DNA of 64,000 nucleotides from Raja brachyura (taxonomy: Eukaryota). The notes below the pieces were generated by a model. It made no database searches and was not told the DNA's origin. It worked only from the letters and a program-made list of their open reading frames with translations. Each line of letters starts with the position of its first letter. The stretch's first letter is position 1. The translations under genes and the position numbers were made by a program. The stretch covers positions 143,840,001-143,904,000 of the forward strand of contig OY740781.1 of assembly GCA_963514005.1 (NCBI GenBank), read 5' to 3'. Positions 1 to 47,099 of this stretch are shown here, piece by piece.

Positions 1-560
1 TCATTCGCAGGTGAAGCAAGAATGGGAAGATGATCAGTGCACAGATTTCTTCTTCTGTACCATACCATGTACGTTTGTCTATAAGGAATTTATCTAGCTC
101 GCATTATTTTTGTGGGATTTGAGTTTAAAATCTGTGTGTTGCACATTAGGCAGCATAATTTTTATCTTCTTTAGCACCTGTTGAAATTCTTGTGTATCTT
201 TTTCCACTTGTTTTACTGTGATGCGGATCTATGGCCCTGTCAGGTTGCTGTTTTGACACCAGGTTCCTAGGTTACCAGGCATATTTACCAGCTAGCGTTC
301 ACTGAAAGCCATTCCATGCTGTGGTTGCACTGGATAGTCATGCAGCTCTATCTTTATGCTAATGCTGTTACCATCATGTTAACTTTTCAGTATGATTGCT
401 AGCTATTTGCTTTCCATTGTCCAGCTCAGTCCATGTATTTCCCCATTGAACCAGGGCATATCCAGTGAGGTCAACCTTTCTTACTGCCACGCCATTCATT
501 TTGATCTTCCCAAGCATCTGTCATTGCCCTATTTTTCTCACCCACGTACTGGCTCTTGGT

Positions 561-1022
561 AGAATCATAGTCATAGAGTCATACAGCATGGAACCAGGCC
601 CTTGGATACCTACACCGACCACCAAGCACCATCTAATCTAGTCCCACCTAAATGCTTTTAGCCCATATTTCTCTAAACCTACCCTATCCATGTACCTGTC
701 TAAATGTTTCTTAAACGTTACCTGCCTCAGTGGTACCTGCCTCAGTGGTACCTGCCTCAGTGGTACCTGCCTCAGTGGTACCTGCCTCAACTACGTCCTC
801 CAGCAAATTGTTCCATACACCCTTTTGTGTGTAAAAAAAAGTTACCCCTCAGGTTCCCATTGAATCTTTCTCTTATCTTATACCTAGGTCCTCTGGTTCT
901 CTATTTCCCCTACTCTGTGCAAACGACTCTGTGCATTTAAACAATTAAACAATGTATTCCTCTCCTGATTTTCTACAGCTCTATAAGATCACCCCTCATC
1001 CTCCTGTGTGCCAAGGAATAAA
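561..1022 (-). mobile_element. CR1/HER1-type LINE 3' fragment
   Basis: Tail catagtcatagagtcatacagcatgg and 3' UTR shared with many copies in the window. Confidence 0.8.
719..789. repeat. 15-bp tandem repeat (TACCTGCCTCAGTGG) x4.7 inside the CR1 fragment
   Basis: Four exact units plus a partial unit. It produces the spurious YLPQW-repeat ORF. Confidence 0.95.
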
Positions 1023-1764
1023 ACCTCGATTCCTGATGGTAACACCATCTGCAGATAAGGTGTACGTAGACTAGTGACCTCTATTGTGGTGTCTCTTGCA
1101 CTTTTATATGCATCTGTGATGTTGTCATTTTTTAATATCCAACATTTCGGGTTTCCAAAACTATATGCACTGGTCAGTTTTGTTTTCCCCTCCGATAGAG
1201 CCAGATTTCCTCAGCATTGTTTTCAGTCTTAAACGGAAATTCCAACCTACATTTGTCCTTTACTGAATTACATCCGTCTACTCTAACCCCCCCCATCAGG
1301 CTCCAAACTCTTCCTCTAACTGAGGCTTGGTATGTATTTCCTCAACTTTAACTCACTTTTTTTTAGCTTTTCCATCAGCTGCCTTGGCCTCAAATTACTT
1401 AAGTAATTGGCCCACATATTTGGCATCTTTTACTCTTCCTTCCTCCTTTAAGATCCTCTGTAGTTACCACTTATTTTACCAACTTTTTGCCCATCCCTCC
1501 TAATACGAACCCCTGATTTAGTGTCTGTTTATTCTTTGGGTGGCATTTTTGCATTTAGGTACATTAAGCAAACAATTAAATGTAATTTATTCTTTTAGAG
1601 ATCAGTTTTGCCAGCTAATTTATGCACAGTGCGCTCTTGAAAATAGATTAAATTATTAATTAGCTGATTAATTGTCAGTTAGTCTGATTTTCATGCTGTT
1701 AGATTTGGAAGGAATGAAGATCCAAGCAATGGGACGATATGATCGTGAAAGCTTTCACATCAGA

Positions 1765-3490
1765 TCAGATATATCCCAGTACACTTTGGGAAGCTAGAGA
1801 GGAAATTGCAGGAGCCCTCGCTGAGACTTTATGAGTGGTTAAATACAGGCGAGGTAACGGAAGACTGGAGGGAGGCAAATGTTGTGCCTCTTTTCATGAT
1901 GGGCTGCAGGGAAAAGGCTGGAAAGTGCAGGCCGGTAAGCTTAACACCTGTAATCAGAAAGTTACTAGAGAGTAACTTAGAGTTACTCAACATGGTTTTG
2001 TATGTGGGAGGTCGTGTCTCACAAGTTTTTTTGAACATGTGACCAAAAAGGTTGTTGAAGGCAGAGCTGTACACGTTGTATACATAGGATTTAGTAGGGC
2101 ATTTGACAAGGTTCCCCATGATAGGTTGGATCCCATGGAATTCAAGGAGAGAGAGCTGAATGGATAGAAAATTGACTTCATGGAAGGAAGCAGAGGGGGA
2201 TGGTTGCCTTTTGGGCTGGAGGCCTGTGATTAGTGATGTGCCTCGGGGTTTGGTGCTGGTCCCGTTGTTGTTTGTTCATCTATGGCAATGACTTGGATGA
2301 GAAGGTGCATGGCATGGTTAGCAAGTTTGCAGATGACACAAAAGTAGGTGGTATTGTAGATAGTGAAGATGGTTGTCAAAAAATGCAGCAGGATCTTGAT
2401 CAGTTGGGCTGAGGAAAGGTTGATGGGATTTAATACTGAGAAATGTGAGGTGTTGCATTTTGGGAGCACTAACATGGGCAGAGCCTACACTGAAAGATAG
2501 GACTCTGAGAAAGGTTAAAGAGCAGAGGGATCTAGGAGTATGTAGGTACATGGAATGTTGGAAGTGGCATCATAGGTAGATAGGGTGGTCAAAAATGCTT
2601 TTGACACATTGGCCTTCGTCAGTCAGAGCATTAAATATGATCTATCTTCTTTGAATATAAAGTTGGGAGGTTATGTTGCATTGTATAAGACATTTGTGAG
2701 GCTGCATTTTGAGTATTGTGTTAATCGGGCCGTCCGTAGGGGCGACTACGGAGGGTTCATGGCCCCGACCATGGCGAACAAAGGAGGAAGATTGACTGAA
2801 CATAATTGCCTTCCATCACAGTGAGGAATGTTGATTCCACTATGGTGGATGTTTATGTTAAATTCTATTGTGTATTGTGCTATTTTTGATTGTATGGCTG
2901 CATGGTAACTAATTTCACTGTGCCTTAATTGGTGCGTGTGACAAATAAATGTAAACTGGAACTTGAACCATGTTAAAGGAAAGATGTTGTCAAGCTGGAA
3001 AGGGTACATAGAAGTTTGCAAGGATGTTGTCAGGACTCAAGGGCCTGAGCTATAGGGAGAGGTTGAGCAGGCAAGGACTCTATTCCTTGGAGTGCAGGAG
3101 GATGAGGGGTAATTTTAGAGGTGTGTAAAATCATAAGAAGAATAGATCAGGTTGGCGCATGATATCTCTTGTCCAGAGTAGGGGAATCGTGAACCAGCGA
3201 ATATAGGTTTAAGGTGAGGGGGGAAAGATTTAATAGGAATACGAGGGGTAACATCTTCACATAAAGGCTGGTGGGTTTATGGAATGATCTGCCAGAGGAG
3301 GTAGTTGAGGCAGGTACTATCGCAACATTTAAGAAACGTTTAGGTTTAGATAGGTACATAGATAGGACAGGTCTGGACGGATTTGGGCTAAATGCAGGCA
3401 GATGGGATTAGTGTAAATGGGACATGTTGGCCGGTGTGGGCATTTAGGGCCGAAGAGCCTGTATCCAGACTTCTATGACTCTTATCTATT
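1765..3490 (+). mobile_element. Decayed CR1 LINE (RT region to 3' tail), interrupted at about 2722-2965
   Basis: Remnants EDWREANVVPLF, RPVSLT, FDKVPH and KFADDTK, with frameshifts and stops. Confidence 0.9.
2722..2965 (+). mobile_element. Short non-autonomous retroelement fragment, same family as 8340-9040 and 20245-21060
   Basis: Shared ttgccttccatcacagtgagga...ggtggatgt stem-loop and gtgacaaataaa tail. Confidence 0.6.
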
Positions 3491-4049
3491 TATCTGAGCT
3501 GCAGTTTGGTATCATATTCAAAACTTGTCATCTGAAACATTGCATTTGTTGAATTGGCATCTAGCATATACTCAAATGCTGGAGTGACAGGTGGATCCTT
3601 AAGCTTTTGATTTATTTGGTCAAGCTGACCTTGGAGTGAATAGAAACGAGCAAGTGGAAAACAAGGCAAAATATATTGCCAAAGTGTGTAGTGGATGCAT
3701 CTGAAAATAATGTAAGGGTACAGGTCACACTCCAGTCTTTTTGGAACATCCATCTTTGGGGAACTCCTTCCTTGGAATTTATAATACCTTTGTATTTTCA
3801 CCATTATGTTTATAGTCAGTGATGGAAATAAAATGTTAATCAAGTTTGGAAACGCAATCTATTCTATTAATAGTACCCAATATTTTAATGTCATTGGTTG
3901 AACTCAAAGGTTAGATTCCATATTAGACACTTCCAAAGCTTCAGAAGGACAACTTGGATACCTGTTTTTATAGTAGTCCCCCCCCCCCCCCCCCCAACAC
4001 AAAAAATGTTTAAAATAATCTATATTTTGATCTTGACCCTGAGCTGGTT

Positions 4050-4530
4050 ACCCTTGCTTTAGGAAGGATGTCATCAAACTGGAAAGAGTGCATAAAAGAT
4101 AAGAACATTTAATATAATGTTACTGGGTCTGGAAGGTTTAGACTATGAGAGGTTGGGTAGATGTTTTCACCCGGTATATAGGGGGCTGAAGAGACACCTT
4201 ATCAAAGGTTCTAAAATTATAAGGTAGCACAGTTAAGGTGACCACAGTCTTTTCTCCAGGGTAGGGGTGTAAAAGACTAGAGGGCATAGATTTAAAGTGA
4301 GATTTAAAAGGGGGCTGTGGGGCAACTTTTTCATACGCATGGTGGTGGTGGTGCGTATATGTAACAAGGTGCCAGAAGAAGTGATAGAGGTGGAACATGT
4401 AAAGATACTTGGACAGGTACATGGATGGGAAAGGATAGGATATGGGCCAGGCACTGGTAATTAGATTGAGCTTGGTTAATCAACCTGGTTGGCATGGACA
4501 AGTTGAGCTGAAAAGCCTGTTCTCTATGTT
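4050..4530 (+). mobile_element. CR1 3' fragment
   Basis: aggaaggatgtcatcaaactggaaagagtgca ... ggacaggtacatggat ... 3' UTR typical of CR1. Confidence 0.75.
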
Positions 4531-4689
4531 GTTTGGTTCAGACTGTGTCCCTAATCCAATTATGAAAATTCTAAATGCTCCATAATCCCAATCATAAAAC
4601 CAGACTACATCATTCTCTTAAAAGATGAGCATATGCAAAAAAAATCTTACTTTTCTGTTTGCTACCAAGACCTCATAAATAAAGGAGTG

Positions 4690-5570
4690 AATTAATAAGT
4701 TTATTGGCCAAGTATTCACATACAAGGAATTTGCTTTGGTGCTCTGCTCGCAAGTGGCAACATGACATACAGTGACAGTTAGGAATGACACATAAAACAT
4801 TAAACATTAATAATAAAACATTATCGATTAAACATGTGAATTAAATAAATTACCAGAGCAAAAGGATGCTACAGATTTTTGGTTATTGAGTAGAGCTACT
4901 ACTCGTGGGGAAAAAAGCTGTTTTTATGTCTAGCTGTTGCAGCTTTGACAGTCCGGAGTCGCTTTCCAGAGGGAAGTGATTCAAAGAGTTTGTGGCCAGG
5001 GTGGGAGAGGTCAGAGATGACCTTACCCGCTCGCTTCCTGGCCCTTGCAGTGTACAGTTCATCAATGGAGGGAAGGTTGCAGCTAATAACCACCTCAGCT
5101 GATTGGACAATTTGCTGCAGCTTCTGTATGTCGTGCTTGGTGGCTGAGCCAAACCAGACCATGATGGAGAAGATGAGGACAGACTCTACGATGGCCGTAT
5201 ACAATTGGACCATCATTGCCTGTGGCAGATTGTGTTTCCTCAGCTGCTGCAGGAAGTATGTCCTCTGTTGTGCCTTTTTGACTGTGGAGTCGATTGTGGC
5301 CTCCCACTTAAGGTCCTTGGAGATGATGGTTCCCAGGAACTTAAAATACTCCACAGATGTAACTGTGGTGTTGTTGATGGTGAGAGGAAGGGGAGTTCTC
5401 CTAAAGTCTACAATCAATTCCACTGTCTTAAGAGCATTGAGCTCCAGGCTTTTGCGATGGCACCAGGACGCCAGCTGTGTCACTTCCTGTCTGTAGGCAG
5501 ATTCCTCCCCATCCTGGATCAGTCCAATCAGGGTTGTGTCGTCCGCAAACTTGATAAAGTGACGAACCCT
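4690..5570 (-). mobile_element. Rex1/Babar-type LINE, 5'-truncated, with an open RT C-terminal frame
   Basis: ORF 4899-5624 encodes KFADDTTLIGLI..EESAYRQEV..LELNALKTVELIVDFRR..FKFLGTIISKDLKW..NSFFP. The 3' tail carries AATAAA near 4700. Confidence 0.85.
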
Positions 5571-5899
5571 ACCAGAAAACACTCGGCGATGACACAGGCT
5601 AAATACCCGATGACAATTAGACAATTTGAAAGGAAGTTAGTGTGTTAATTAATTTATTGTGTGGCTTTCTTGTGGCTTCTGCCAGTCAATGTGGAGATGA
5701 TCACTTGGCATGTCACTTTTAGAGCCTGAGAGAGTGCACTGAAACATTTGATAGATGCCTGTAAATTGCACGTTTAAAGTAGAGGGATAATATGCCAGGC
5801 AACTTATGAAGTTTAGTCATTGGACAGAGAATTTGCACATGGCATTTAATAATAAGAAATAAATGTAGATAACTAAAGCATTATGCATTTTCTTTTTTT

Positions 5900-6370
5900 A
5901 TGACTCGCAGATTCAAGCAGATTTAACAGGGCTTGGATTTGGGTTCTGGATTATCTGTTTTGCCAGACCAACAGAGATCATGACCTCCGAGCGTAGTCGA
6001 CTGGACTGCCTAGGTTGCTGGGGGACCGGGATACCGGCCTGGATGTGGAGATGGATCTGCTGGGTGGGCATTCAAGAGCCCTGGCAGCAGGGGACAATTT
6101 CGACCCACAAATCAGCCATGGAAGTCGGATGTGGGTGTCGATCTGCCAGCCCTGGCCGGGCTGGAGTTCCAGAGCTCCAGCTGCAGGGGGCAAATTTGAC
6201 CCGCCAATCAGCCGCAGATGTTCCAATAGGGTCAAGGTCGGTCGCTTCACCCAGCCGAGGCACCACTTTTTTGGGGCTAAGTACTGGGGGTGAATTCCAG
6301 TACGCTCTTATAATTCTGTCTGGATTAAATGAGGTCCACCACCAGTTGTCAGAAAATTGGTTGTGGACCT
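5900..6370. repeat. Unclassified GC-rich interspersed repeat with an internal ~50-bp duplication
   Basis: GC/CpG-rich block. gcaggggacaatttcgacccacaaatcagcc (~6087) resembles gcagggggcaaatttgacccgccaatcagcc (~6183). Confidence 0.4.
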
Positions 6371-6514
6371 GTTTCTGCAGTTCCTTGCGTCTCCTGCCTT
6401 CGATTCATACAGCATGAAAACAGGCCCTTCAGCCCAATTCGTCCGTGCCAACATGATATCCCATGCAAAATCGGTGAAGGACGTGTACCAGTGTGCCACA
6501 ACTGCTTCCTACAT

Positions 6515-7100
6515 AGAGACATAGAGTGATACAGCGTCGAAACAGGCCCTTCGGCCCAACATGTCCCAGTTACACTAGTAGCACTTGTCTGCGTTTGGCC
6601 CGTATCCCTCTAAACCGGTCCTATCCATGTACCGGTCCAACTGCTTCTTAAATGTTGGGATAGTCCGTGCCTCGACTACTTCTGGCAGCTTGTTCCATAC
6701 CCCCACTACCCTTTGTGTGAAAAAGTTATCCTTCAGATTCCTGGTAATTGTTCTTTTTCCCCCCCATCACCTTTAACCTGTGTCCTTGATTCACCTCTGG
6801 GCAAGAGACTCTGCATCTACCCGATCTATTCCTCTCATGATTTTATACACCTCTACAAGACCACCCCTCATCCCCGCCCCGCTCCAAGGAATAGAGTCGC
6901 AGCCCACTCAACCTCTCCTTATAGCTCAGACCTCGAGTCCTGGCAACAACCTCGTAAATCTTCTCTGTACCCTTTCCAGCTTGACAACATCTTTCCAATA
7001 ACATGATGCCCAGAACAGAACACAATATTCTAAATGTGGCCTCGCCAACGTCTTATACAACTGCAACATAACCTCTCAACTTCTATACTCGGTACTCTTT
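6515..7100 (-). mobile_element. CR1 3' fragment
   Basis: The minus strand encodes [17 protein letters not shown]. Tail catagagtgatacag. Confidence 0.85.
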
Positions 7101-7369
7101 GACAGATGTGACTACCATCACATGCTAGTCTCCCTCTCTCACTTGTGAGCATTGTTAAGCACTAGATTTGACACCGACTGGAGCACAGAGCTGGCAGAAT
7201 TCGCAACCAATGTTTTCTCTCATTGGAAGATTCATTTTGATTTTTTTTTTTTCAATTTGTGCTTTAAAAATTTAAGGACATTATATTAAAAAAAAATGTT
7301 CTCCATGCTCAGAACTCAGTTTCACCCGGTGATTTTGTAATGATGACAAGACGGAGTATATAAAAGGGA

Positions 7370-8090
7370 CATTGACTTCAGGAAAAAGGGTGGAGTACAC
7401 TCTCCAGTCCGTATCAATGGTGCTGAAGTGCAGATGATCAAGTGCCTCAAATTTCTAGGTGTAAATATTACCATCAATTTGTTCTGGCCCAACCACATTG
7501 ATGTTACACCAAGAAAGCACAGCAATGTCTCTTCTCTACTTCCTTAGAAGCGCAGACTCGTACAAATGTCGACAGATGCACAATAGAAGCATCCTTACCG
7601 GTTGCATCACAGCACGATAGGGAATTGTCGAGAGTCGTGAACATAGTCCAGTTCATCATGCAAAATAGCCTTCTCCCCCACCCCACTCATCGACTGGATC
7701 TACACATCATGGAACTTCGGGAAATCAACCAACATAATCAATCACCACCTTAGTCATTCTCTCTCCTATCTTCACCTGTCAGATGGAAGATACAGATGCT
7801 TGAAACCATCAGATTCAAAGATTCAAAGAACAGTTTCTTCCCCCTGGTTATCAGACTCTTGATGGACCTCTCGCATGTTGGAGATGAGCTTACAGAGCAA
7901 CCAATCTACCTGATTGAAGCCCTTGTTTTTTTTTGCCTGCACTTCCTCTGCAGATAGCTGTAACACTATTCTGCACTTTGTTTTCTCTTTTGCTCTGCGT
8001 AATGTACTCGTCTATGGAGTATTTTGCCTGGATAACATGTAAAACAAAGATTTTCACTATATCTCGCTATACGTGGCAATAATAAACAAG
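7370..8090 (+). mobile_element. Decayed Rex1/Babar-type LINE 3' fragment
   Basis: Remnants IDFRK, KFLGVNIT, CTIE and NSFFP, with tail gtggcaataataaac. Confidence 0.7.
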
Positions 8091-8339
8091 CTTCAAATCC
8101 TGGTTAGTCCAGGCAAACTTTACGCTTTATAATATGATAATGGTTGGGGTTTTGTCCTTGGTATGCCTCAGTTGCCCATTGGAACTGGAATGGTTCTCCC
8201 AGTGCGCATGCACACATACACACACTCGCGCAGCGCCCCCCCCCCCCTTTCCATCTTCCTTCACTGCTTGCAGTAAGAGCGAGTTCAACTTGGTTAATTG
8301 CAGGAAATAATCCAAGACCGAGGGTGCCTTGGTCTTTGA

Positions 8340-9040
8340 TTTTATTTTATTTTATTACTTGTCATTCGAACCTCAGAGAGGCTCGAACGAAACTCCGTTT
8401 CTACAAGCCATACAACAGAACAATTCATAACAAAATACACAGACAATTCAATTCACACAAACATCCATCACAGTAAATCTCCTCCTCACTGTGATGGAAG
8501 GCAAAGTCTTCTCTCTCCCCCGCACCATTTCTCTCCCGAGGTCAAAGCCCTAGGCGGGCGGTGGTAAGTCCAACGGCCATTGAGGCCGCGCTGGGCGATG
8601 TACGGCCCCGCTCTAGGCCCAAGGGTCACAGTTGGAGACCCTGGCGGGCGCTGAAATGTCCCGCGGCCATTAAAGCCCGCGCCGGGCGATGTATGGCCCC
8701 GCTCCGGGTCGCTCCAACCCCACGACACGGGCTGGAGAAGCTGTGTTGCGGAAGCTCCGGAAAGCGGTCTCCCACCCGGACCCGCGAGCTCCCGATATCC
8801 CGACAGTCCACCGTTCTGCAGCTGCAGCCAGAGCTGGAGCTCCGGAGTCGGGCCGCAGCAGCGAGCCACCACCACTCCCCGCGCTCCGAGGCCGGCCAGC
8901 CCCACGATGGTGAGTCCGCAGCTCCGCAGGCTCAGTGAGTTGACCCCCCACACATACACAGTTAGAAACAATACAAAAAAAACACGAACAACTACATTTA
9001 ACTAGACAAAAAATTAAAAAAAAAGTCAGACAGGCTGTAG
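8340..9040 (-). mobile_element. GC-rich non-autonomous retroelement
   Basis: CpG-rich core with internal duplications, a 3' stem-loop (8463-8500) and gaatgacaagtaataaa tail on the minus strand. Related to 20245-21060. Confidence 0.65.
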
Positions 9041-10317
9041 TGAGTCCCTTTTTCCCATTAATTTATTTCTATTCACTACACAGTTCCATTTCTAATAAAA
9101 ATGGGAACTGTCTTAAAGTGAGAGTCAGCAGGTTCAAGTGAACGCACTCATCTTGTGTGCATGAGAAATTGAGCCACGGTAGATTTTAAGACATGAATCT
9201 TCTGACCAGGCGAGGTGATTACTACTGATGAGTTCGCCTACAAATTAACTGAGATGGAGGTATCATTATTTTGAAACCTCCCCCACGTCATCCTTTGAAA
9301 ATGTGTGTGATTGCACGGAAAGCTTGGTGAAAGTCTGTGGCTGTGCTCTCATGGAATGTTATGTCGCCTTGGGTGCTGTCATATTCAGCTTCCCTGTGGT
9401 GAGCCCAGTTATGCAGTCTGCCTGCGTTCAGCATTTGTCAACAAGCCTACACAAATGTCCTTATTAAGACTTTATTGTGGAGCAACTTAGTCCGAGAGCT
9501 AGATTTAGCCAGGTAACAAAGAATAAATCCAAAAAAATGCAGTCATTTAGAACTGCTGTTGATTTCTCAGTAATAAGGGCCATTTGGAAACCACGTATTA
9601 AGTTACTACAGTTCCAGAAATTGTTTGGAATCCGATTTATTTTGAGCATCCCATTTACATGTATTTGCATCGGGCAGAAAAAAAATGGTGCTGCACTTAA
9701 AATATTTTAACATTTTTCTCCCACTTAATCAATTTTTAAAATGACCTGAAGAAAATTTAGAATGTGAATAAAAATGATGCACAACCATTGAGGTTGAAAA
9801 TAGTTGCAATTGGTGAACATGGGTCTTGGCTAAGTTCATTCTTCAGATAGTGAAGCAATTACACAAGTTATTCTCGAGGTCACATTGCTAACAATAGTGG
9901 AATAATTCAATCGCTATCCTTGTTAAGTTAATTAAATTGGCCTTTTTCATTAGTTACCAGAATATAGACCTTACACAACAGGGGGTATCCTAAATGAAAT
10001 GATATCTGATGTACTGTTATTAGACCCCAGGTGGCTGATATTCGATGTACTAGGTGTACTATGGGCTTGCTACTAGCCTCTGGAGACTTTAACAGAGATA
10101 GTAAATTGTAGTTGAATTGAAGATCTCCAGGCCCATTGCTTGTCTCAGGTACTCTAGTTGCACTATAGACTGGCATCCCTTTCCACCAAGTCTATCGTAC
10201 AGACCTATAATCTCTTTATGGGTCAGCATCATTCCTTTACAGCACCGAAGAAAATCTCTTCGAGGAATTGGCCACTTTGCCCCAGTCCCATGCTCATTCT
10301 GCATAGTCTTGTATAAG

Positions 10318-10596
10318 GTAGACACAAAATGCTGGAGTAACTCAGCGAGACAGGCAGCATTTCTGGAGAGAAGGAATGGGTGACGTTTTGGGTAGAGGCC
10401 CTTCTTCAGACTGATGTCGGGAGTGGGCGGTACAGAGATAAGATGTATTCGGAGACAGTGAGACTGGTGGGAGGAAGGGGAGGGGGGGTTGGAGAGAGAG
10501 GGATAGCAAGGGCTAATTGAAGTTAGAGCAGTCAATGTCCATACTCCTGGGGTGTAGGCTACCCAAGCGAAATATGAGGTGCTGTTTCTCCAATTG
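10318..10596 (-). mobile_element. Penelope-like element 3' fragment (GIY-YIG C-terminus plus pLTR)
   Basis: The minus strand encodes QLEKQHLIFRLGSLHPRSMDIDCSNF*, followed by ctgaagaagggcctctacccaaaacgtc and the gctgagttactccagca terminus. Confidence 0.8.
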
Positions 10597-11149
10597 TATA
10601 ACTTCCCTTTTCACGTATTTACCCAATTATTCTCTGAAAGCTGTCATTACATTTGGTTCTGCCTACCTTGAAGGCTGTACATACTGTTTCAAACCAAGAT
10701 GCCCAATTTAAAAATATTCTAAACCTTGCAATATATAAATTTATACATATGTCACCTGTATAGATCCTTACTAGATTTTGTAAGTTGAGATATCTTGTGA
10801 CAATAATGCCCATAGCTACTAATATTTTTACCTCTGGGGAATTGGATTGAAGTTGCTCAGTGTCCACCTGACTTTCATAAACCACCCTTGCCTTGAAACA
10901 CTTAATTCATCCCAGGATTTATTGCTACACTCTCTTTAATTGCTTACTTATAGACCCGAGACCTTGCTAAATCATGCTAATTGTACATTACATTTGGCTT
11001 TTCTTTCTAACTCTGATGGCAACTTTAACATGTTTTACTTTTGCACATTAATGGCTCTAGGAAGTTTTGATTCCCCGCCCTCCCCAACTCATTAGAATGG
11101 TTTTCACTTACAATACACATGCGGATTTGGTGAAAAAGAATCACATTGG

Positions 11150-11300
11150 TGCGATATTGAGGGAGTGTTGCGCTGTCAAAGGTATCCTTTTTCTGGATAA
11201 GATATTAAATAAAAATCTGTCTTGTCTCCAGTGGATATCAAAGAAACCATGACACAATTGGTAGAGGGTAGCTTTTCCCTGGTGATTATTTCCCTGCATT
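11150..11300 (+). mobile_element. Old Deu-domain SINE fragment (SacSINE1/AmnSINE-like)
   Basis: tgagggagtgttgcgctgtc...gtggatatcaaagaaaccatgacac resembles the Deu core as recalled, and the copy at 15160. Confidence 0.5.
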
Positions 11301-12309
11301 TGTTTGATATTTTGATTTGTTGAATATATTTCATTTGTTTGTTCAAATTTATCTATTATTTCTTTTTTTTTTGTTTTAATCCAATGTTCTCTGTGGCATA
11401 AGTAAAATACTTGGCCTGTGGGGTTTATTGGAGGGGGAGGGGTTTTGACCAGTTAGAAAATGTTCTTTTTTTGGACGCTCACTGCTTAGGAGAGTTAAAA
11501 TTGTTTTCTGCCATAACATGATCAAAATGCGATGCCGAGGAATTGATCTGCTCAGTGTGTAAAGGAACGTATAGCTTCCACAGAATGGAGGATGCTAACT
11601 CAAATGGAATTTATTAAATTAATCCCTTAAGTAACAAAGACTTATATGCACATGAAATTTAAGTTTAATGTACGGTCATAATTGTCACACGTCATTGGAA
11701 TTGGAATCTGACCTGCATCCTGACTAGTTTTTTTGTTTTGTTCTTAGCTGAAATATTCACTACTCTTTCCATTTTGGATTCTGATGACATTGGTGTGTTG
11801 CTGGCATTTCCTGTTTTTAGTTCAATAACTTGCATGGCTGTGGTTTAGTGAATGTTCACCAGAAACAAGCTGACTACTTCTTTTGAATAGTTTTTCTTAA
11901 TATCCAGCGTTCAATATGCAGCGTTCCATATGCAGACTTCAATTTATGTTTAATATTGCTAGATGTAGAGGAAACTAAAGCATGCACTAGTCTTCTCTCC
12001 TGTGGTTTATAATGACCTAAAATTGTCCATAAAGTGATATTGGACACCTTCCCCAGACTAATTACTGCCTGATTTCTGAACTGTTCTTCTAATATTTGAA
12101 CAAAAATGCAGGGAACCACCAGAGTACACCCTAATGAGGTATTTGGAAACCAGTGAACAGAATGTGTTCAGTTAAAGCTCCACAGGACTTCTTAGAAACA
12201 TCATGTTTTCTGTGTCTTTGAATGTTTATTAGCTTTCCTGTTGAGGATTGGTGCAATGGAACTCCAGACATAGGAACAGACAGCATATTACTTGTTTTTG
12301 CTTTTACAG

Positions 12310-25404: not shown

Positions 25405-25521
25405 GTTAGCATAGGCTGTCCAGAAAAGATGGAGCCCATAACAAAGATATCACATGTTCCTGCCAGCAGATGGGCATTAGTGTGCAGCTTGTGCACCGAG
25501 AAGGCTGGAGCCTGCATACAG
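25405..25521 (+). CDS. JADE1: JADE1 coding exon, PHD2 start (not in the ORF track)
   Basis: tatttag|GTT...ATACAG|gtttga, 117 nt. Encodes [39 protein letters not shown]. Confidence 0.96.
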
Positions 25522-25686
25522 GTTTGAAAAATAATAATCGTACTCTTATTTTCCAGCAAGTTTTCAAGTATAACATCAGATAACTGTTTTCGTATTAATG
25601 AACATGAGGTAAAGTTTCATCAAATGAGATTTAAGCTCATTTTGTTAAAAGGCATACCTTAAAAATAATTAGGAGTATGATATTTA

Positions 25687-25901
25687 CAGTGCCATCCATT
25701 ATGTTTGGGACATGTATTTATTTGCCTCTGTACTCCGCAATTTAAGATTTGTTATAGAAAAAACATCACGTGCTTAAAGTGCACATTGTCAGATTTTAAT
25801 AAAGGTCAATTTTATACATTTTGGTTTCACCGTGTAGAAATTACAGCAATGTTTATACATAGTCGTCGTCGTCCCCCCCCCCCCCCCCCCCATTCCAGGG
25901 C
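25687..25901. mobile_element. Solo TIR of the same Tc1 family
   Basis: TA|CAGTGCCATCCATTATGTTTGGGACA..., colinear with 22687-22900. Confidence 0.85.
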
Positions 25902-27824: not shown

Positions 27825-29784
27825 GTGAGTGCTGTTGCTTGGAGCTGCAATTCTGCAATTTAATATCATCCTCCCTGCAAATTTCCCCTGCTTTTAGCAA
27901 ATTCATGTTGTGATTCTGAATGTTTTTGCCATTGCTTTTTATTCAGCTGGTCTTTATAAGACAAATTCAATTTTTATTCTGTCTGTCTTTGAAGGATATT
28001 CTTCCATTTGTAAAATTCCCACCATCTAGATGGGTGCACGTTTTCATCACCATCTGTGCTGCGTCAAACTGGAAGAAACATGTTGGATAAATTATCCCAT
28101 GCAAGGGGATGCAGATTGGTGCTGAGTCATCAGTAACTCACTTAGTAAAGCAATCCAGCGCACTTCAAGAATGTTAACCTTATGGTGCACTGTTTTGCCC
28201 TCGGTCAGGGAGAAAGTTCTACTGCTGCCATCAGTAAAATCTTCCAACTCTCCACCCCCCAGTTAAGCTGTTCAAATTTGACTATTGAATAAGGAAGAGG
28301 CAATAACATTTTGAAGGAATTTCTGTCCATCCAAAAACTCCTTATTGGTGTCACTCTATTTTTATGTAAAATAAGAATTCCTTTTGGAACTCTGCAGTAA
28401 ATATTTGACAATAGTTTTGCAATTGGTGACCAAAGTACTACATTTAAACACAGAGCGATATTTTCCGTGCTGGCATAAGGGGGTGTTCTGTCACATCTGC
28501 ATTAATTTATTTGCATTGAATTGGAGAAGTAGAACCGTGACATTTTGATAGGAAAGTAAAGAACATTATTGTAACTGCAGAATAAGAAGTTGTTGAGCTT
28601 GCTTATAGTTTCACTTCTGGTGCTTCTAGGCACAACCGTGCTGGCTGAGTTGACTGCGGAATGAAGAATTTGGATCCTTGTTAACTGTTCCTGCTGATGG
28701 GGAAAATAGAGGGGAAATGTTCTGCTGAAGCTCTTGTTTGCACTGATTGAGAACTTAACCGCTGGGAAGATTGTATTTGTTGTGAGAACAGTGGTTTCCC
28801 ACTGGTCAACTCGCGGGACCTATTCATCTTAATTTTTATCAAGGTGCTCAAGCCAGCCTTTGTGTTTTCAGCCGTGCCCCTCAATGGCAAGATTTTAATG
28901 GGCAGCCTGGGGTGGCTGCACCTTATCATAACCGCTTCTCGGCAACTACCTTCCAACACTTCATATATGGGAAACTAAGCAGTCTCAACGTTGTGTCCAG
29001 AGTGGTTCTGTGCCAATAAAGAGTGATTTGAATTCTATAAAGCCTCAGCTGAAAGTCAGGTTGATATTTTGTAAACTAGAAAATATACTCTTCAGTATTT
29101 GAAAAAATTGATTTAGGAAAGATTGGTTGGTCAGACAATCAGGAAGGTATGAGAATCAGACACATGGTACATTTTACAAGAAGAGTGGTGCTTTATATTA
29201 TTTCAGAAGATCCAGTTTTATTTTGCAACTTGTCCTCCTCCAAGTTGTTTGTTTACTGGAAAGATGCTTGGTGAAAAATCTTGTTTTTTGCTTTTTATTC
29301 TCCTCCCTTCACCATTGGAGACTTTGGCTATTAACGTAACAACTAAAGGAGTAACTTGATTAAATTTGACTTGAAATGCACATTGTTTCCAATATCACAT
29401 TTCTCTTCTTCTATGAGTGTTTGCCACCAGGAAGGGAAAGTTCCTCTGGAAAAAACCTAAAAGGAGTTAAATAAAATTAGGTACTTGGAGTAGCAAAATG
29501 CACTGTTTATCTGCTGTGAGTTTGAAACCTTCTGAGGGCACAAATGATTATTTAAATCTGAAGTCAATACACATCTTTCACTTCCTCGTATACTTAACTT
29601 GAAACAGAAAACGCTTGAAGTGCTCTGCAGGTCACTTCTAAGTTTTCATCAGAAGTTTTGTTTACAAAGTTCAGTTTCAAATTTTATAGGTAAATCCTCG
29701 CATGGATGCAAGTTTTGTGAAGACATGAAAAAGGTATTGTAGATATTTTCCCAGAGAACTTAAAGCATCCTACAAAGATGTGCA

Positions 29785-38208: not shown

Positions 38209-38326
38209 GTTCGAAACCTTACTTACATGGTGAGTCGAAGGGAGAAGATTAAGAGATCAATCTGTCGAGTCCAAGAGCAAATATTCCACCATCAAATGAA
38301 ACTTCTCGAAGAAGAGCGCATTTCTG
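38209..38326 (+). CDS. JADE1: JADE1 coding exon, long-isoform part (not in the ORF track)
   Basis: ccaatag|GTT...TCTG|gtaagt, 118 nt. Encodes [39 protein letters not shown]. Confidence 0.96.
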
Positions 38327-38334
38327 GTAAGTCA

Positions 38335-38650
38335 TAGAAAACATAGAAAATGGCCTACTCCTGCACCTATTTGGCCCTTCAAGCCAGCACGCCATTCATA
38401 TGATCATGGCTGATCATCCAAAATCAGTACCCCGTTCCTGCTTTCTCCCCATATCCCTTGATTCCTCTAGCCCTCAGAGCTAAATCTAACTCTCTTGAAA
38501 ACATCCAGTGAATTGGCCTCCACTACCTTCTGTGGCAGAGAATTCCACGGATACACAACTCTCTGGGTGAAATTTGTTTCCTTATCTCAGTCCTAAACCA
38601 GGGCCCTGTACAACTGCAGAAGGATCTCCTTGCTCCTATACTCAAATCCT
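38335..38650 (-). mobile_element. CR1 3' fragment immediately after the JADE1 donor site
   Basis: catagaaaacatagaaaa tail. Very similar to 31690-31950. Confidence 0.85.
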
Positions 38651-40727
38651 CGACAGTCCAAGAAAGTGGTAGGTCAGCCAAGCCACCCTTTCCCAGACCA
38701 CCGCTCCCAAATGATGTGGCCTAGAAAGCCTCGAGAATTTGTGTGGGTAGTATTTAAATTTGAAAGACTCGCTTTTAAGATTCTGAGCATTCGTGGTCAG
38801 AATATACCATGGACCAGGTGTGGACCAAGTTCCAAATGGAAGTAAGGAGAGGCTTGGTGGGTACATACACTGCTCAAGATGCCACTGGCAATTTGTAAAG
38901 TTGTGAAGTGTTTTGAGATTTGCCTCAATGCTTGCAACCTTGTACATTCAGTGCTCTGTCAGGCTTGGTATTCACTCCCCTTTCATAACACTGAATCTAT
39001 ATTGCATCGACACAGCTGTGGAGCAATAACAATAGTTAATGCTGCAGGTTTCCATCTCCTTCCCTCCTAATACAATGATGTGTTTCATGAGCACCAGGTG
39101 TTCAGATGCTGATCTTTGTTTTGGTGTCATGGACTTCCGCTCCATTTAACACTTCCATATACTTTAATTAACGACTACCTCTGTGTCGGTGATTCCCAAT
39201 TACTCATCTGTTTACCCTCTGTGTGCCTGAAATGCAATTGTTTGTCTTTTCCTTTGTCCGTATGGAGTTTTAAGAGCGCTAAAAATCTTAGACATTTCTA
39301 TAGCTACCTGTGTAAGTAAGATTAATTTTGGCTTTTACATTTTTCATTTACAGGTTTAGTTGAGGGGTTAATTTCCATGTGTTGACTTATTGTAAATAAA
39401 ACAATAAATTAGGTTTTATTTTTAGTTTAGTTTGAAAGCATTGAGTCAATTGTGGGGTGAAGGCTGATCTGGAGTTTAGGGAGTTGTCAGTGCTGGCCAT
39501 CTACATGACTAAGCCACGTCTAGTGCACGAGGTAACAACGTACTGGCTTCATGTTGTTGTCGTTTGTGGTGATAAGCAGATTCCATCAAGTGAACACAAG
39601 AACGTCCATCTCCAACACTAGATTTTTTAAATTCCTTACACTGAATTATTTCCCAACTTATTAAATGTCGGCACCTGCCTTCTATCCATTTCTATTTACT
39701 CTTTAAGATAACTTTCTGCCTCTGGAACGCTAACTCTTAGTCATTTGACTTCAGTCAGACTCTAATTTCTGAAAATGTCATGTAATGCGCACACCATAGG
39801 AGATGAGAAATAAAGGTAAGTGTAAAATGAAAAATGTATCTACGGTCACCCAGTGTTACAATCGGATTTCTTAAAACTACTGTTGGCAGGAACTTCATTG
39901 CTCAGCTGTAAAAATCATATGATCTGCAGTCCAACTGGTCACTTTCAGTGATCATGATACATCTTCCATAAAGTGGAGGCAGTATTGCCTAATTAATGAC
40001 TGTGCTTGCACCACTTTCTCATCTCACTGCACCAAGTTCACATCTGGGGTTTCTGCTATTCTTACTTTTAACACTCTTGTTATGGTTCCATTCCCATGCT
40101 TTCCTGTGTTGTTGGTTTAATAAGCAAGATTAGATAAAATGCATGTGGTCTGTGGTTTGGGGAAGTGAGAATTGGAGAGAAGAGTTCTCCAAGGTGGGTA
40201 CTACTCGTCTTGAGAATAGACACACCAATGAACCAGCATGCTTTCTTTATATTTAGCTTATTTTCTAATTTACTTTTATTTCTCATCTCCTGTGGTGTGC
40301 TCACTATAGGAAGTTTTATAAATGTTAAGTCTGACTGAAGTCAAATGACTAAGGATTGTTATTGAAATGCTCAAGAGACAGAAAGATATCTTTAAGAGTT
40401 CGTTGTAGAAATGGAATGAAATGTAGGTGCCCACTTCACTTTAATCTGTCGGGAAATAAATCAGTGATTTTTTTCTTAATTGATGTCCCATTTTGTCTGT
40501 TTGTTGTTTTAACCTGAGAAAAGCTGCTCTATTGTTGGAGGTCTTGCTTGTCAACAAACCGATTCTTCCACCTCGTCCAAGGCAGTTCCTAAGGGGCAAG
40601 GCTTCTGTTCAATTTGGTGCATTCTGATCTGACGGATGATGTCTATCAGACCAGCGGACTGCCACAGTAGGTGCTTGACAGGACAGGTGGGCATTTTGCT
40701 AAGTGTTGAGATCCTGTTTTCTAAAAT

Positions 40728-41292
40728 AAAAGACTCAAAGTGCTGGAGTAACTCAGCGGGTCAAGCAACATAGACTGGAGTAATGCTGGAGTAGCTCGGT
40801 GGGACAGGTAGCATCTCTGGATAGAAGCATTGAAAATAGGTGCAGGAGTAGGCCATTTGGCCCTTTGAGCCAGCAAGAAGGAATGGGTGACAGGGGAGAG
40901 GGAGTTACAGAGATAATGAAGTGTAAGGTGTGAAAACGAGACAAAGGTGATGAGTATCAAAGGAAAATGTAGAATAGACCATTGTTAGCTGGGAGAAGTT
41001 AACAGCAAAGCAAACAGAGATAAAAATGTAATCAAGGCCATTCAGGCTGGTCAGAGAACTGGGAAAGGGGGAGGGATCGAGAGCAAGGGTTACTTGGAGA
41101 GGTCAATGTTCATACTGTTGGGGTGTAAGCTGCCCAAGCGAAATACGAGGTGTTCCATCAATTTGCGCTGGGCATCACTCTGGCAATGGAGGAGGCCCAG
41201 GACAGAAAGGTCATTGTGGGAATGGGAGGGGGAGTTAAAGTGTTTAGCACCGGGAGATCAGGTAGGTTTAGGCGGACTAAGCGGAGGTGTTC
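40728..41292 (-). mobile_element. Penelope-like element 3' fragment (GIY-YIG endonuclease C-terminus plus pLTR)
   Basis: The minus strand encodes KHFNSPSHSHNDLSVLGLLHCQSDAQRKLMEHLVFRLGSLHPNSMNID. The pLTR end is gctggagtaactcagcggg. Confidence 0.85.
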
Positions 41293-42119
41293 AGTGAAAC
41301 TGTGTTGCTCGTCGAGCCTGTGTTGTTCTTGCAAGCAACGTCACTGGAGAGTATGGATAGGTGACGTTTTGGGGAAGGATCCTTTGGAGCTCCTTCTGTT
41401 GTTTTTTCTGCTGGGCTTGAAGTTCTCACACCCATCCCAAATGCTCCTTGCAGATTGAGTGGTCACAAGTCTAAGATTCCCAAGAGTGGGTGAAGATGTT
41501 GCCCTTTCTGAGATTCCTTAAGTCTTTTTCTTGCTTTACAACATACGGTAACAGGCATATAATTGATGAGGTATGCCCAGTGTTTCAGTGTTTGCCCAGG
41601 CGAGGACGATGGTTCATTTATGTTGCTGGAATCTCTCCAGTGCTTTGTAGCGTTGCTATCTCAGAGGCAGATAGGAGAATCGGTATCACTGCTGCCTGAT
41701 AGATTGTGAGCATTATGCCCAACTTGTAGTCTTGATCTTCAGGCATTGCTTCTGAAGATGAGGATGAATTTTACATTTGTTGCTTGCCTTTTCCCTTAAG
41801 GTAGTTCCCAGGATATGGGAAGTGGTCCCCATTTTCCATGGTCTTCCTGTGGACCTTTATTGTCAAAGGTTGTTATTGTACAGTGGAGGTTGGTAGAGGG
41901 TCTTTCCCTTACACTTGTTAAGAGTAAGATCAATTCTTCCATCTGCTTTGGTAAATGAATCAATAATGCACATGAAAGGACACATGGATAAGGACTGTTT
42001 GTTTATCGTGCCCTGATGATTGAAGTTGGGGGTGACCAACAGGAAACCTAATGATGAACAGGAGTGTGAAAGAATGAGGAATGTATTGGTGACATCTGCT
42101 CTTTACCAAACATAGATTC

Positions 42120-42265
42120 AGTATAGTCTGAAGGGACCTGACCCGAAACGTCACCTATCCATCTTCTTCTTATCGAGTCCGCACACAAGATTAGAAGTTG
42201 TTCAGCCAGAGCTGAAGTTCTTCAGGGATACAGGCTGAGTTACTCCAGCACTTTCTGTCTTTTTT
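42120..42265 (+). mobile_element. Penelope pLTR fragment
   Basis: gtctgaagggacctgacccgaaacgtcacctatcc...gctgagttactccagcacttt. Confidence 0.7.
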
Positions 42266-43349
42266 TACCGATTCAGTATACCTGAGGTAGATTGTTAATG
42301 AGAAATTTAAAGTTAAAGAAAACAACGACTTGCTGTTTTCTATATCTATCATTGCTGTTGTGATGAACTTTTGCATGAGGCGATGTGGATTTTATCAGAT
42401 TAAACCACAGTTTAAAAAAAAAACTAATTCAAACTTTGATGTTTGTGGTGTCGGTGGGTTGAGTAGAATGGAGGCGATGGCGCGGGTAGGGGGTGGGTAT
42501 ATGTGGCAAGTGGAGTCGGTGTTTTGAATAGTTTCTTTCATTGTGTAATTAAAGGATTAGTCCACGATAACTGGTCTAAGAAACATTTATCTTGGAGGAA
42601 ATGGAAAGTTAATTATAGAAAAAAATAATGTCAGCATTACTGTAGTTTCTATAATCTGAGGATATTAAACATTGCAGAGCATTGGTTTTCCTTGAAATCC
42701 ATGCAAAACCCTTGAACCTTGATTGGTATTTACACTGCCATTGAAATTGGTGGAGATGAGTTATGGAAATTGGTTTACTGAGTTACTTTCGGTATGTCCT
42801 TCTATCAGCCCTGTCCTTTGTGAGAAGGGATGCTGTGGTCATGATACTGATGTTGGCTTCTCTCCAATCTTCAGTACTGCAGCAAACCAACCGTATGCTG
42901 CACCTGAATTAATTGCTTTTCCTCCTTCAGAATTCAATGTTGTATGAGATTGCTTGCTCAATAAATTGAAAGGATATAAGCTTCTGGGAGCTTAATGTTT
43001 CCTCCCATTTTCGTATAAGTAGATTTGCAGAATTGGAGCTTGTGCTTTATTGGATGCCATTCTTTGGGGCAATGCTTATGAAATCAGCATTTTAAATAGT
43101 AGTATGGAGAACTTACCAGTGATTAAACGCCAAACTTCAGTGTTGGTTTCCTGACTTGTTACTGCTCCGTGACAGCCTATTTCCATCAAATGTTGTTTGT
43201 TGCAGATGTTTTTGTTAGGCTTTATGTAGTGTGGATTTACTGAGCTAAATGTTGCTCAGTATTGTGATTTCAGCTTTATTGACAACACTTTGTTATCCAA
43301 TGAGTATGCAACAGATTGAAAACGGGCATCATCACTCTGCTTGTAAAAA

Positions 43350-43475
43350 CATGGAACTGCAGATGCTTGCTTACCAAGGAAAGACACAAAGTGCTGGAAT
43401 AACCTAGCGGGTCAGGCAGGCAGCATCCCAGGGGAACATGGATGGGTGACGTTTCGTGTTGGGAACCTTCAGAAT
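43350..43475 (-). mobile_element. Penelope pLTR fragment
   Basis: ggaactgcagatgc...agacacaaagtgctgga...gggtgacgtttcg. Confidence 0.7.
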
Positions 43476-44978
43476 GATTACAGGGGTGGGGGGCAAGGGT
43501 GGGTTTGATTCCGTATTCATGCTTCTTGTGATTGAGAGCGATTGCAATAACTAAATGATGACCTTGACACTATCATCACTGTAGTTGAGGATGTATTTTT
43601 CGAGTTATTGCATTCTCAGGACGTGGAATTTTCCCACACAAAGGATGTTTGTTCGGCCTTGTCTTTGTGAATGTTAATACTCTGCACAGTCTTGCCTCAT
43701 CTCACTCTAACGCCACATACTTCATTCTTTTCTCCTCAAGCTTCTCCGTCATAACGCCCTGTGCTTAATATCTGTCTTCCCCTTAAATGCTCCCTTGCTG
43801 ATTGCCTCAGTCACCTAATTAAAATTCCACATTTCATCAATCTGAGCAAAATCAGCTGATGATAGCACTCCCTGGAATTCTGGTCAAGCTATGGATTGTT
43901 GGGAAGTATCACTGTATAAGCCTGCCTGTGTAAGTTATAAACACCATGTGAATTATCTCTTCATGACTAGGTCTAATGTCTTTAACGACCTCCAACATCA
44001 TAAAGTATTCTACAGTTGCCATGCACTCTTGGAGAAAACATGACTGCAATTTTTAGAGGGAGTTGGTCGAGGGAGAAGTACAATACATGCTGACTGCTGG
44101 AACATTCATTCTACATGCGGAAAGGTGCAATAGAATATCTTGTGTTCACCTCGGGGATGCAGGTGGCAACTTGGTTTAACACTTTAATCTGACGATTACA
44201 GCCCTCTTTGATATTGCAAGAGAATGCTTTCCAGTCAAAGATGCCATCATCAGTCAGGTCTTTGTACATTTGTCTCCGGAGTGAGATTCGAAGGGGCAAC
44301 CTTTTGTACTCGGAAATAAAATTGCTACTCCTGAGCCACGGCTTGTACCCAAATGCAAAGTGGCAACTTTGGAACTATGCAAAATCGCATCCTGAAACAT
44401 CGTATTGCCAATCCTTTTCTCTGCAATGATATTGGTTGGTGTGACATACAAAAGCGAAGACTACAACCCTGACTATATGATTCATTCAATTAAAGCATGC
44501 ACAGCACAAATTACCCTGCAAGCAGTTTGGAAAAACTAAACAAATGAAAAATGAATGACGTATTACTCTATGGGGAAAACCCCAGAAATTCTACGACATT
44601 TCACAATTGATGCTTTTTCATTTCTGTGGAATATTTCCCCATTTTACAACTTTTCTGAAGTTATTTAAATAGAACTTACCAAGGTTGAAAATTGGATAAC
44701 ACTAGAAACTAATCTTACTGCTACAATTTGACAATATTCAATTATGGAGGCTGGTATTGCATATTTAATGTCAGAAAAAAATAGCTATTTGTGTTTATAT
44801 TTTTGGAATCATTTTTCACTGCCGTCTGTTACCAATGCACCACCTTTGCAAAAGAATAAAGAATAAATGCTTTCATTGAATGTTAAAAGTTAAAGTTTGG
44901 GCTTAATGTAATGCAAAATGAGAGCAGGCCTTCAAAGAATATGATACCATCTGAATAATGTGTGTGCTTTGTTTGTAG

Positions 44979-45947
44979 GTGTGCCTTCAGCATTCCCATC
45001 ATCAGATGCTTTATTCCTTGGTTGGCTGGCACAATCTCATCCGGTTTCCAAAACGGGTGGTTTACAATGGAAGTTGAACAGCGAACTGGAGACGAGCCAA
45101 CATCCTGATAAAGTCTGGTGTGAAAGGAGTTCGCGGTTGAGTGGCAGAATGCAAAGCCACACTGAATCTGCTAAACAGAGCTTATTGAAACAATCAAATC
45201 GATCCAGTGAATGCAAAAACACACCCAACCTTCACAGGGTCAAGGAGGATTATTCCAGCCCAAGCCTCCTTCTGCCATATGACATGATTCGTGGCGAGGC
45301 CAGAGGTAATACTTGTGAGAGGAATGATGGTCTGACTACCACTGACCACAGGAAGAAAACTGACGTCAGTAGACGTAGTACAGGAGGTAGAACTGAATCG
45401 AGAGAGAGAGCTTGTTCAAAACGTGACAAATCTTACATGTCTGCAGATTTGACCTTACGGCAGTCTGAAAACAAGCGAGCTTTGTGCGCTACTGTGTGTA
45501 AAGTTCCCTCTGTTAGTATTCGGAGGTTATCTGGGGATGGCAGTCACATGCACACCAAATTTAACGGTACCTTAAGTAAGGTAGTGTGCAATCAGTCTGC
45601 TGTCCCTCCTGGACAACAAGGAGTCAAAGTGCCTACAACACCTACGAGTCCAGTGAAAAACTGGGGTGGGTTCAAAATCCCCAAAAAGGGAGAAAGGAAG
45701 CAACAGGAGGAGAGACCGGAGGCTTGCAGGCAGATCTCCGAATCCACCCAATACCAGCGAACCTCGCCCAAGGAAAGAACCAAGGTGAGACAGCTGCCAG
45801 ACAGTGAGAACGATGGCTACAGTCCTGACGTTGAGATGAGTGATTCGGAAACGGAGTCAGACAATTGCAAGCCGCAGCGGCTGAACTCAAATAGTGAACA
45901 GGAGGTATGGGACAGATATTATTCGAAGAAGCATCCTGGCCTCCTGA
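44979..45947 (+). CDS. JADE1: JADE1 last coding exon. As given, the main frame stops at 45979, but the conserved C-terminus lies in the +1 frame and ends at TGA 45945-45947
   Basis: tttgtag|GT GTG CCT TCA (GVPS). Contains KVPTTPTSPVKNWGGFKIPKKGER and ENDGYSPDVEMSDSE. The +1 frame at 45897-45947 reads NRRYGTDIIRRSILAS*. Confidence 0.9.
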
Positions 45948-47099
45948 TCTGGGGTTGTGGTGTAGGGGTGCGGCCATAGAAGTCCACTCCTCGTCTGATA
46001 ACCAATACCAGTCTCAACATTATTTTATCTACATGCCTTGTTGTGATACAATGTTTCTTCAGGCCAAGTATTGGTACCCAGGGACATTTCCTGTCGTGGA
46101 ATGTTTGTCAGTAAAACACTTGTGTTTAAGTCACATGCTACAGTTTTGCAGCTAATGAATCTGCCCCATGTATAGTTACCAGGTAGACCTTTTGAAAACA
46201 TTATTGGGGAGTAACTAGATCATTAACATGTCAGCTTTAAACATTAAAAACCTTAAACACTTTACAAAAACATTTCAAAAATAATTAATTTAAGATCTCA
46301 GTGGTTGAACGGTTAGTGCACCACATTTCATTATTGTTTATTTTTTTAAAGCATGATTTAAAACAAGTTTTAAATAACTTAAAATCATTAGGCCTTGTGA
46401 TAGGTCAGACCAGACTTTATCTAGTATTCTGAATAAAAACAGACTGCAAAGTAAATGCAGCAAATTCTGTGCCTCAGCAGATATAACTTTCATTTCAGTA
46501 AATTGATGAAAACCCAGTGTTCAGCAGTATTAGATTGTAATTACAAAGTTCTTCAAAGTATTCACTGGTCAGGGTGAACCACACTAAGCAGTGTACGCAG
46601 AGAGGTTCAGATAGACAGAACTTGAAAGGAGTCCTGTATTCTTCATAAATTCTGCAATATGTACATGCGAGGATTGCTTGCAACTTAATGAAGGATGGCT
46701 TGTCACTTAATGAGTATGTGAAGTTGTTACATGATTTTTCCCCCCCCCAGAATTTTGCGATGTACCCCATTTTTTTTCCTTCCTGAAAAACTGGAGTACA
46801 ACTCATTTAGTATGTGATAATATGTAAGATTATTACGCTTTTATCGTTTTAAAAGATCACTTGTCTGTTCCATGCAGGTATTGCCAATATTTTAGACTGA
46901 TCTTTTAAATGCTATTGACTCATTCCACATACTTGAATCAGCTGGCACTTGTATTGAATCTGCAGTTGGGCGGGATTTGTAATGCAGAAATAGCCCAGTC
47001 CAACAATTAGGCAGAAGGAATGAGGAGAAAACTACAGAATTGTCAAGACATTTTTCGTTTTCAGTTTTGTTTTGAACAATTTGAACTATGGATTGAAAA

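Follow-up and report, generated by a model that had tools for sequence, protein, structure and literature searches.

The stretch of DNA analysed here, called the window below, is 64,000 nt long (143840001-143904000, within a 2.7-Gb genome) and encodes JADE1 on its + strand: the EPL1, PHD and zf-HC5HC2H domains are present, and the product matches a little-skate Jade-1-like protein at 99%. Seven JADE1 exons were placed on the window by tblastn. The penultimate coding exon (VRNLTYMV...EERISG) lies at 38209-38326 (+) with a phase-1 donor at 38327, and the last coding exon of the long form lies at 44978-45979 (+); the last intron, delimited by tblastn and by donor and acceptor context, spans about 6.65 kb (38327-44977, +) and hosts the inverted repeat that is our subject.

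Long and short splice forms of JADE1 are already known (PMC9247007). At 44016-44056 (+), an AG is followed in phase by VAMHSWRKHDCNF and a stop, a homologue of the alternative last exon of a stingray Jade-1-like X5 model (P0125); judging from this homologue, a short JADE1 form ending in the last intron may be common to skates and rays. This short stingray isoform maps outside the repeat. Three further features of the gene deserve mention: two tandem AATAAA words followed by a T-rich tract at 39395-39430 (+), 200 nt upstream of the left arm, a possible intronic poly(A) site; a read-through past LRQDLERV at 27825-27863 (+), which adds 15 residues where mammalian JADE1S-type proteins end; and an exon at 25405-25521 that is missing from a thorny-skate isoform model (P0124).

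The inverted repeat and its copy number

A preliminary description of this DNA had reported an imperfect inverted repeat with arms of 260-290 nt around a perfect 26-bp core. The repeat is real, with secure arms that are shorter, about 190-207 nt: the left arm occupies 39639-39828 and the right arm, an inverted copy with degenerate splice signals, 40260-40466, on either side of a unique 425-nt loop at 39833-40257 (all +). The core (39736-39761/40328-40353) pairs at 26 of 26 positions, and four of the other blocks stand as described, namely 39698-39723/40374-40399 (23/26), 39670-39678/40423-40431 (8/9), 39639-39657/40448-40466 (17/19) and 39789-39819/40270-40300 (29/31, both deviations being G·U on the + strand). 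The last of these grows to an unbroken 33-bp helix, 39789-39821/40268-40300 (+), with 30 Watson-Crick and 3 G·U pairs. The outermost block is less secure: 39561-39585/40536-40561 matches at 9 of 25 positions ungapped, and is marginal when gaps are allowed (39562-39596, +, with 40525-40559; gapped score 29, P = 0.049). The arms have no inner extension (P 0.79), and there is no pairing beyond 39540/40580 (P 0.36). A secondary hairpin claimed for the loop (40005-40185) is what chance gives, with z +0.92 and 169 of 200 shuffles folding as well.

The alignment of 39639-39828 with 40260-40466 has a score of 200, where the null mean is 32.5 and none of 2000 resamplings gets as high; 154 of the 192 columns are Watson-Crick, 10 are G·U, 9 A·C and 19 other, with 19 gap positions. 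An apparent G·U excess in a wide alignment (72 vs 36) was discarded, as it stems from long chance-aligned flanks and vanishes in the core alignment. The RNA fold of 39639-40466 is predicted at -301.5 kcal/mol (z -16.2; 0 of 20 shuffles as stable). Sense and antisense folds are similar (-338 vs -329.5). The 33-bp helix is more one-sided: all three deviations are G·U on the sense strand, giving -52.7 vs -43.5 kcal/mol for the antisense. The repeat had also been called the strongest local duplex, a rank it does not keep, since four repeat-made inverted pairs in the window outscore its 117 bits; the top one consists of the terminal inverted repeats (TIRs) 22692-22917/24289-24521, at 263 bits. It is the strongest pair of the window among those with non-repeat arms. 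In the window self-comparison, the arms match only each other, and they pair with no coding exon.

A genome check for a MITE family had been proposed along with the preliminary description. Searched with the left arm or with the entire 1.4-kb region, the genome yields only the query itself and the partner arm, and two 26-nt blocks on which both arms agree are found only at the locus with 2 and 3 mismatches allowed (2 matches each). As positive controls, three repeats were put through the same DNA search, which returned 594 to 2201 candidates; one of the three is an old TIR family recovered at about 80% identity. Within the limits of BLAST and pattern searches, in which frequent words are passed over by the DNA search and a tiny or far older family could escape, the repeat is single-copy in the 2.7-Gb genome and is therefore not a MITE. 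The 23-nt donor block had no match in a metagenome scan, and Rfam returned nothing for the repeat, either at the gathering threshold or at E 1. Around each of two JADE paralogue exons, 30 kb of sequence held only repeat-made inverted pairs and, near these exons, only chance-level matches of 17-36 nt to the arms.

We consider it very improbable that the arms are the TIRs of an extinct, very low-copy DNA transposon. Their length, near 200-300 nt, does resemble that of the TIRs of the Tc1-type element in the window, but both 26-nt consensus blocks occur only at the locus at 2 or 3 mismatches, and no transposase remnant was found between the arms, where the sole ORF of at least 70 aa has no Pfam match at E 0.1; one has to keep in mind that MITEs may lack transposase anyway. 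Likewise, no target-site duplication was seen at the three candidate end pairs inspected, the true ends being worn and altered by deletion. As for the Tc1-type element itself (22692-24521), it is decayed, with TIRs of about 230 nt at 85% and a third TIR copy at 25685-25882, and its HTH matches fall below the curated cut-off for HTH_SB. The window holds another inverted pair, 16093-16151/18963-19021 (59 nt, 85%, 2.8 kb apart), which has no other copy in 1.26 Mb sampled.

In order to see how common such fold-backs are, we used a sample of 1.2 Mb in 120 pieces of 10 kb, of which 100 were spread across 26 contigs and 20 flanked the window. It contained 114 inverted pairs of at least 100 bits with a spacer of up to 3 kb, 54 of them within 1 kb. 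Five loci looked low-copy: three proved multicopy, one (L050) had sample matches on one arm, and one (L042, positions 3332-3909; C4:55003332-55003909) is a single-copy fold-back, with 203-nt arms at 74% and a 186-nt spacer. Its statistics are near those of the JADE1-intron repeat (150 Watson-Crick pairs, 13 G·U, 10 A·C, longest run 25). One such locus per 1.2 Mb implies roughly 2,000 single-copy fold-backs genome-wide, with a wide range of about 60 to 12,000.

Divergence of the arms among relatives

Parts of the stretch are present in six organisms, and single contigs of three relatives (C, D and E) span both arms; F covers 38663-39224 at the 80% identity threshold, outside the repeat, on 86% of its sequence. 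This gap does not speak for absence of the repeat in F, since E, too, gives no cover at 89% although it spans both arms at 80%. Base-level changes come from C and D only, with the rows for C running through 40504 (40 of 169 substitution rows) and 38 of the 39 differences of D within 39640-40470 counted. Across these two relatives, 5 of 193 places changed in the left arm, 28 of 425 in the loop and 16 of 213 in the right arm; changes are scarcer in the left arm than in the right (p = 0.04) or in the loop (p = 0.05); the right arm changes at the loop rate (p = 0.74). The quietest part, 39778-39897 (+), is a 120-nt stretch unchanged in C and D that continues into the loop for about 70 nt beyond the arm (longest gap, P = 0.02), and the best 258-nt segment contains only 4 changes (P = 0.002 by scan). 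Local rates vary in the intron: the unique stretch 38660-39330 (about 670 nt) has only 7 differences in C, and D, E and F cover it at about 95%.

None of the 21 changed arm places belongs to a two-sided compensatory change, a count with low power at 3-5% divergence. The perfect pairing of the 26-bp core is interrupted in both relatives, at 40353 in C and, in D, at 40337, with a wobble at 40339 as well. Ten places are paired only in D and three only in the window; DNA-level homogenisation between arms could also make D appear more paired. Changes at ancestrally paired places number 17 vs 22.5 expected (P = 0.14), and those at window-paired places 6 vs 10.5-12.6 expected (P 0.03-0.10, under an assumed branch split). 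In C and D, both halves of the 33-bp helix are unchanged, which has P 0.07-0.10 when the branch leading to the window is left out of account. At 39635-39639 (+), the relatives carry extra letters, 27 in C, 23 in D and at least 7 in E; by eye (not computed), those of C and D resemble the reverse complement of about 40467-40490 and continue the pairing, which suggests that the window lineage probably lost part of its left arm (23-27 nt at about 39638). This pattern points to an old pairing that is for the most part drifting, under mild constraint at best.

These counts do not show a duplex preserved by selection: there is no compensatory change, and the right arm keeps to the loop rate. The preliminary description had seen the repeat as an excellent substrate for ADAR, pointing to its A·C mismatches, or for Drosha/Dicer. 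The mismatches are no signature: 9 A·C stand beside 10 G·U, the same mix as in the unrelated L042 (10 vs 13). Nor does this ratio lend support to a fossil of past editing. As for Drosha/Dicer, a pri-miRNA has a stem of about 35 bp with a short terminal loop, and here the loop is 425 nt long and Rfam gives no match. We find it improbable that the duplex was selected as an ADAR substrate or a small-RNA precursor: a very stable predicted fold on the transcribed strand, somewhat fewer pair-breaking changes than expected in C and D, and a 26-nt run longer than random placement gives (P = 0.04) speak for it, but the arms pair with no coding exon, G·U and A·C are about equal (10:9), compensation is absent, and neither the long loop nor the blank in Rfam suits such a role. 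Moreover, such duplexes are plentiful, given the 114 pairs in 1.2 Mb, and L042 has a run of 25 too. That the duplex on the transcribed intron strand could be edited by ADAR is plausible in view of what is known of long intronic duplexes.

A candidate cryptic exon in the left arm

The preliminary description had overlooked the exon-like character of the left arm, which bears a predicted donor and acceptor around a stop-bearing candidate exon. The donor consensus is MAG|GTRAGT, and AAG|GTAAGT at 39813-39821 is its only perfect instance in the 6.65-kb intron. Its pairing with U1 is -12.5 kcal/mol, vs -6.4 to -11.2 for five real JADE1 donors. A candidate 3' splice region at 39655-39707 (+) is predicted from a branch-point-like word and a pyrimidine tract (82%) that is AG-free back to 39621, followed by AAG; this acceptor lies 108 nt upstream of the donor, and the A at its -3 position makes it weak. 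Other AGs occur at 39740, 39754 and 39759, within the 26-bp core and just after a CTAAC word. The predicted cryptic exon would thus be 108 nt long (39708-39815, +), with an AATAAA at 39809-39814. Read in phase, it would add DNFLPLER and then a TAA at 39731-39733, 82 nt before the donor, with three more stops after it; on sequence evidence, the candidate splice pair frames a premature stop whose distance to the last junction exceeds 50-55 nt.

How often would this arise by chance? Perfect donors occur in the sample at 0.011-0.028 per kb, so that one is expected in 580 nt of arms in 0.7% (non-repeat) to about 1.6% (all-sample) of cases; for donor and acceptor rule together, the figure is 0.05-0.1%, under a rule that was set after seeing the candidate and that none of the seven real JADE1 acceptor regions passes. 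The donor sits inside the 33-bp helix. In the predicted fold, its unpaired probability is 0.01 and that of the AG 0.05 with the right arm present, vs 0.24 and 0.45 without it. What is new here, as read from the letters, is the combination of the only perfect donor of the intron, enclosed in a sense-strand helix of 33 bp, with a candidate acceptor 108 nt upstream and an in-frame stop.

A possible but doubtful reading is that JADE1 uses the left arm as a poison (or alternative terminal) exon, with its own inverted copy in the right arm acting as a switch. U1 would bind before the right arm, 450 nt further on, is transcribed, and afterwards both splice sites would be locked. A long-form mRNA that includes the exon would have its stop 82 nt ahead of the last junction and be degraded by NMD, a way for elongation rate, helicases or ADAR to tune JADE1L. 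The one-sided constraint would then reflect the exon, its mirror needing only to stay roughly complementary. The perfect donor, the AG-free pyrimidine tract and the 108-nt spacing fit, and so does left-arm constraint reaching past the donor, an extension typical of alternative exons. The 33-bp helix fits as well, with three deviations out of three being G·U, a gain of 9 kcal/mol on the sense strand and no change in C or D, as do the joining of donor 38327 to another acceptor in the stingray gene model P0125 and the precedent of BRD2/BRD3 (PMC10789245).

Several points weaken this reading. No two-sided change occurs, the right arm changes at the loop rate, and the unchanged helix reaches only P 0.07-0.10. 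The acceptor rule was fitted to the candidate afterwards, 0 of 7 real acceptors pass it, and its -3 base is A. A low change rate is also found upstream in C (7 in about 670 nt), and base-level data come from two relatives. Finally, no batoid isoform ends at the candidate exon among 15 of the 20 cluster members, and NMD targets are rarely listed anyway. In its most specific form, a poison exon of the skate lineage whose off-switch is its own inverted duplicate, with inclusion and long-form decay depending on whether U1 binds before the second arm is transcribed, and with ADAR possibly reopening the sites, we hold this idea more tentatively still.

The one-sided constraint could also have a cause at the DNA level. 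The left block (about 39640-39897) would then be a constrained element, such as an enhancer or a protein-binding site, the right arm a neutral copy, and the RNA pairing and splice words incidental. Constraint beyond the arm, a neutral right arm and the absence of a G·U excess agree with this; the perfect donor and acceptor are left unexplained, however, and the block has no match outside the locus, so we rate it unlikely.

Origin of the repeat and known systems

A skate-shared, single-copy intronic fold-back is real at this locus, and the interpretation given in the preliminary description is supported in part. The reading that we prefer, with about even confidence, is that of an old local inverted duplication that mostly drifts and would keep a stop-bearing pseudo-exon silent, any ADAR editing being a by-product. 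One local fold-back event would have produced a mirror copy of the left arm. Since the arms differ at 38 of 192 columns, vs about 5% between the window and D, we infer an event some 3-4 times older than the split from D. The pre-mRNA is predicted to zip into a duplex of about 190 bp, which would bury the strong donor and the acceptor; a harmful pseudo-exon with signals stronger than real ones might then be tolerated because it is paired, while the rest of the repeat decays and any ADAR editing stays incidental.

In favour of drift, there are no two-sided changes, the right arm evolves at the loop rate, and the core is broken in C and D; in favour of burial, the intron's only perfect donor sits inside the 33-bp helix. 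Other observations fit less well. The left-arm deficit of changes and the quiet stretch about 70 nt beyond the arm count against this reading, as passive masking does not account for them. Also against it are the partial pairing that the donor region shows even in the absence of the right arm (0.24 unpaired), the greater pairing in D than in the window, the few changes at window-paired places, and a perfect donor in the arms, expected in only about 0.7-1.6% of cases. Because the pairing is likely drifting, the candidate exon is more probably a false exon passively silenced by an old duplication than a tuned switch.

A repeat that only drifts would be of little importance, one intronic duplex among many. 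Should the left arm be in use as an exon, one inverted duplication of unique DNA would have created a compact, testable splice switch, in a histone-acetyltransferase scaffold gene with known long and short forms, and it would point to a class that can be screened genome-wide, that of single-copy fold-backs covering splice sites. There may be hundreds to thousands of such fold-backs in the genome and, if the left arm is indeed a poison exon, they would offer a way for new cryptic exons to arise in a silenced state and be recruited later.

We found no literature joining JADE1 with a poison exon (subscription journals and bioRxiv supplements being outside the scope of the search), nor, going by the entries listed, any such case in work on JADE1 intron RNA structure or on skate or cartilaginous-fish editing at inverted repeats. 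Among known systems, MITEs and Tc1 long-TIR elements (such as window 22692-24521 and the L116 family) likewise have inverted arms of 200-300 nt around a spacer; unlike them, the JADE1-intron repeat is single-copy, with no target-site duplication seen and no transposase trace. Inverted SINE/Alu copies in introns form duplexes that are edited by ADAR and can mask splice sites. The present repeat shares with them a long imperfect duplex within 1 kb of pre-mRNA, any editing of which would likely be a by-product, but its arms are unique DNA and not repeat copies.

Closer parallels come from poison exons. In a survey of cryptic poison exons in conserved human intronic regions, 25% are reported to have a flanking complementary pair (PMC11632617); its main text does not mention JADE, nor does one of its supplements mention JADE1/PHF17. 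Like those exons, ours is an unannotated exon-like element in an apparently constrained intronic block; unlike theirs, its conservation is compared among close relatives only. The nearest case is that of the poison exons of BRD2 (3b) and BRD3 (5b), for which it is reported that blocking the complementary regions raised inclusion and that compensatory mutants restored it (PMC10789245). Here too, a chromatin-regulator gene carries a candidate intronic cryptic exon with a stop, and complementary regions are predicted to suppress its inclusion. The JADE1-intron repeat is seen only in skates, is known from sequence, and lacks the looped-out-exon geometry of BRD2/BRD3. In the latter, it is the flanking introns that contain the complementary regions, and inclusion has been measured (PMC10789245), whereas in the skate gene the candidate exon and both of its splice sites form one arm of a 190-bp duplication.
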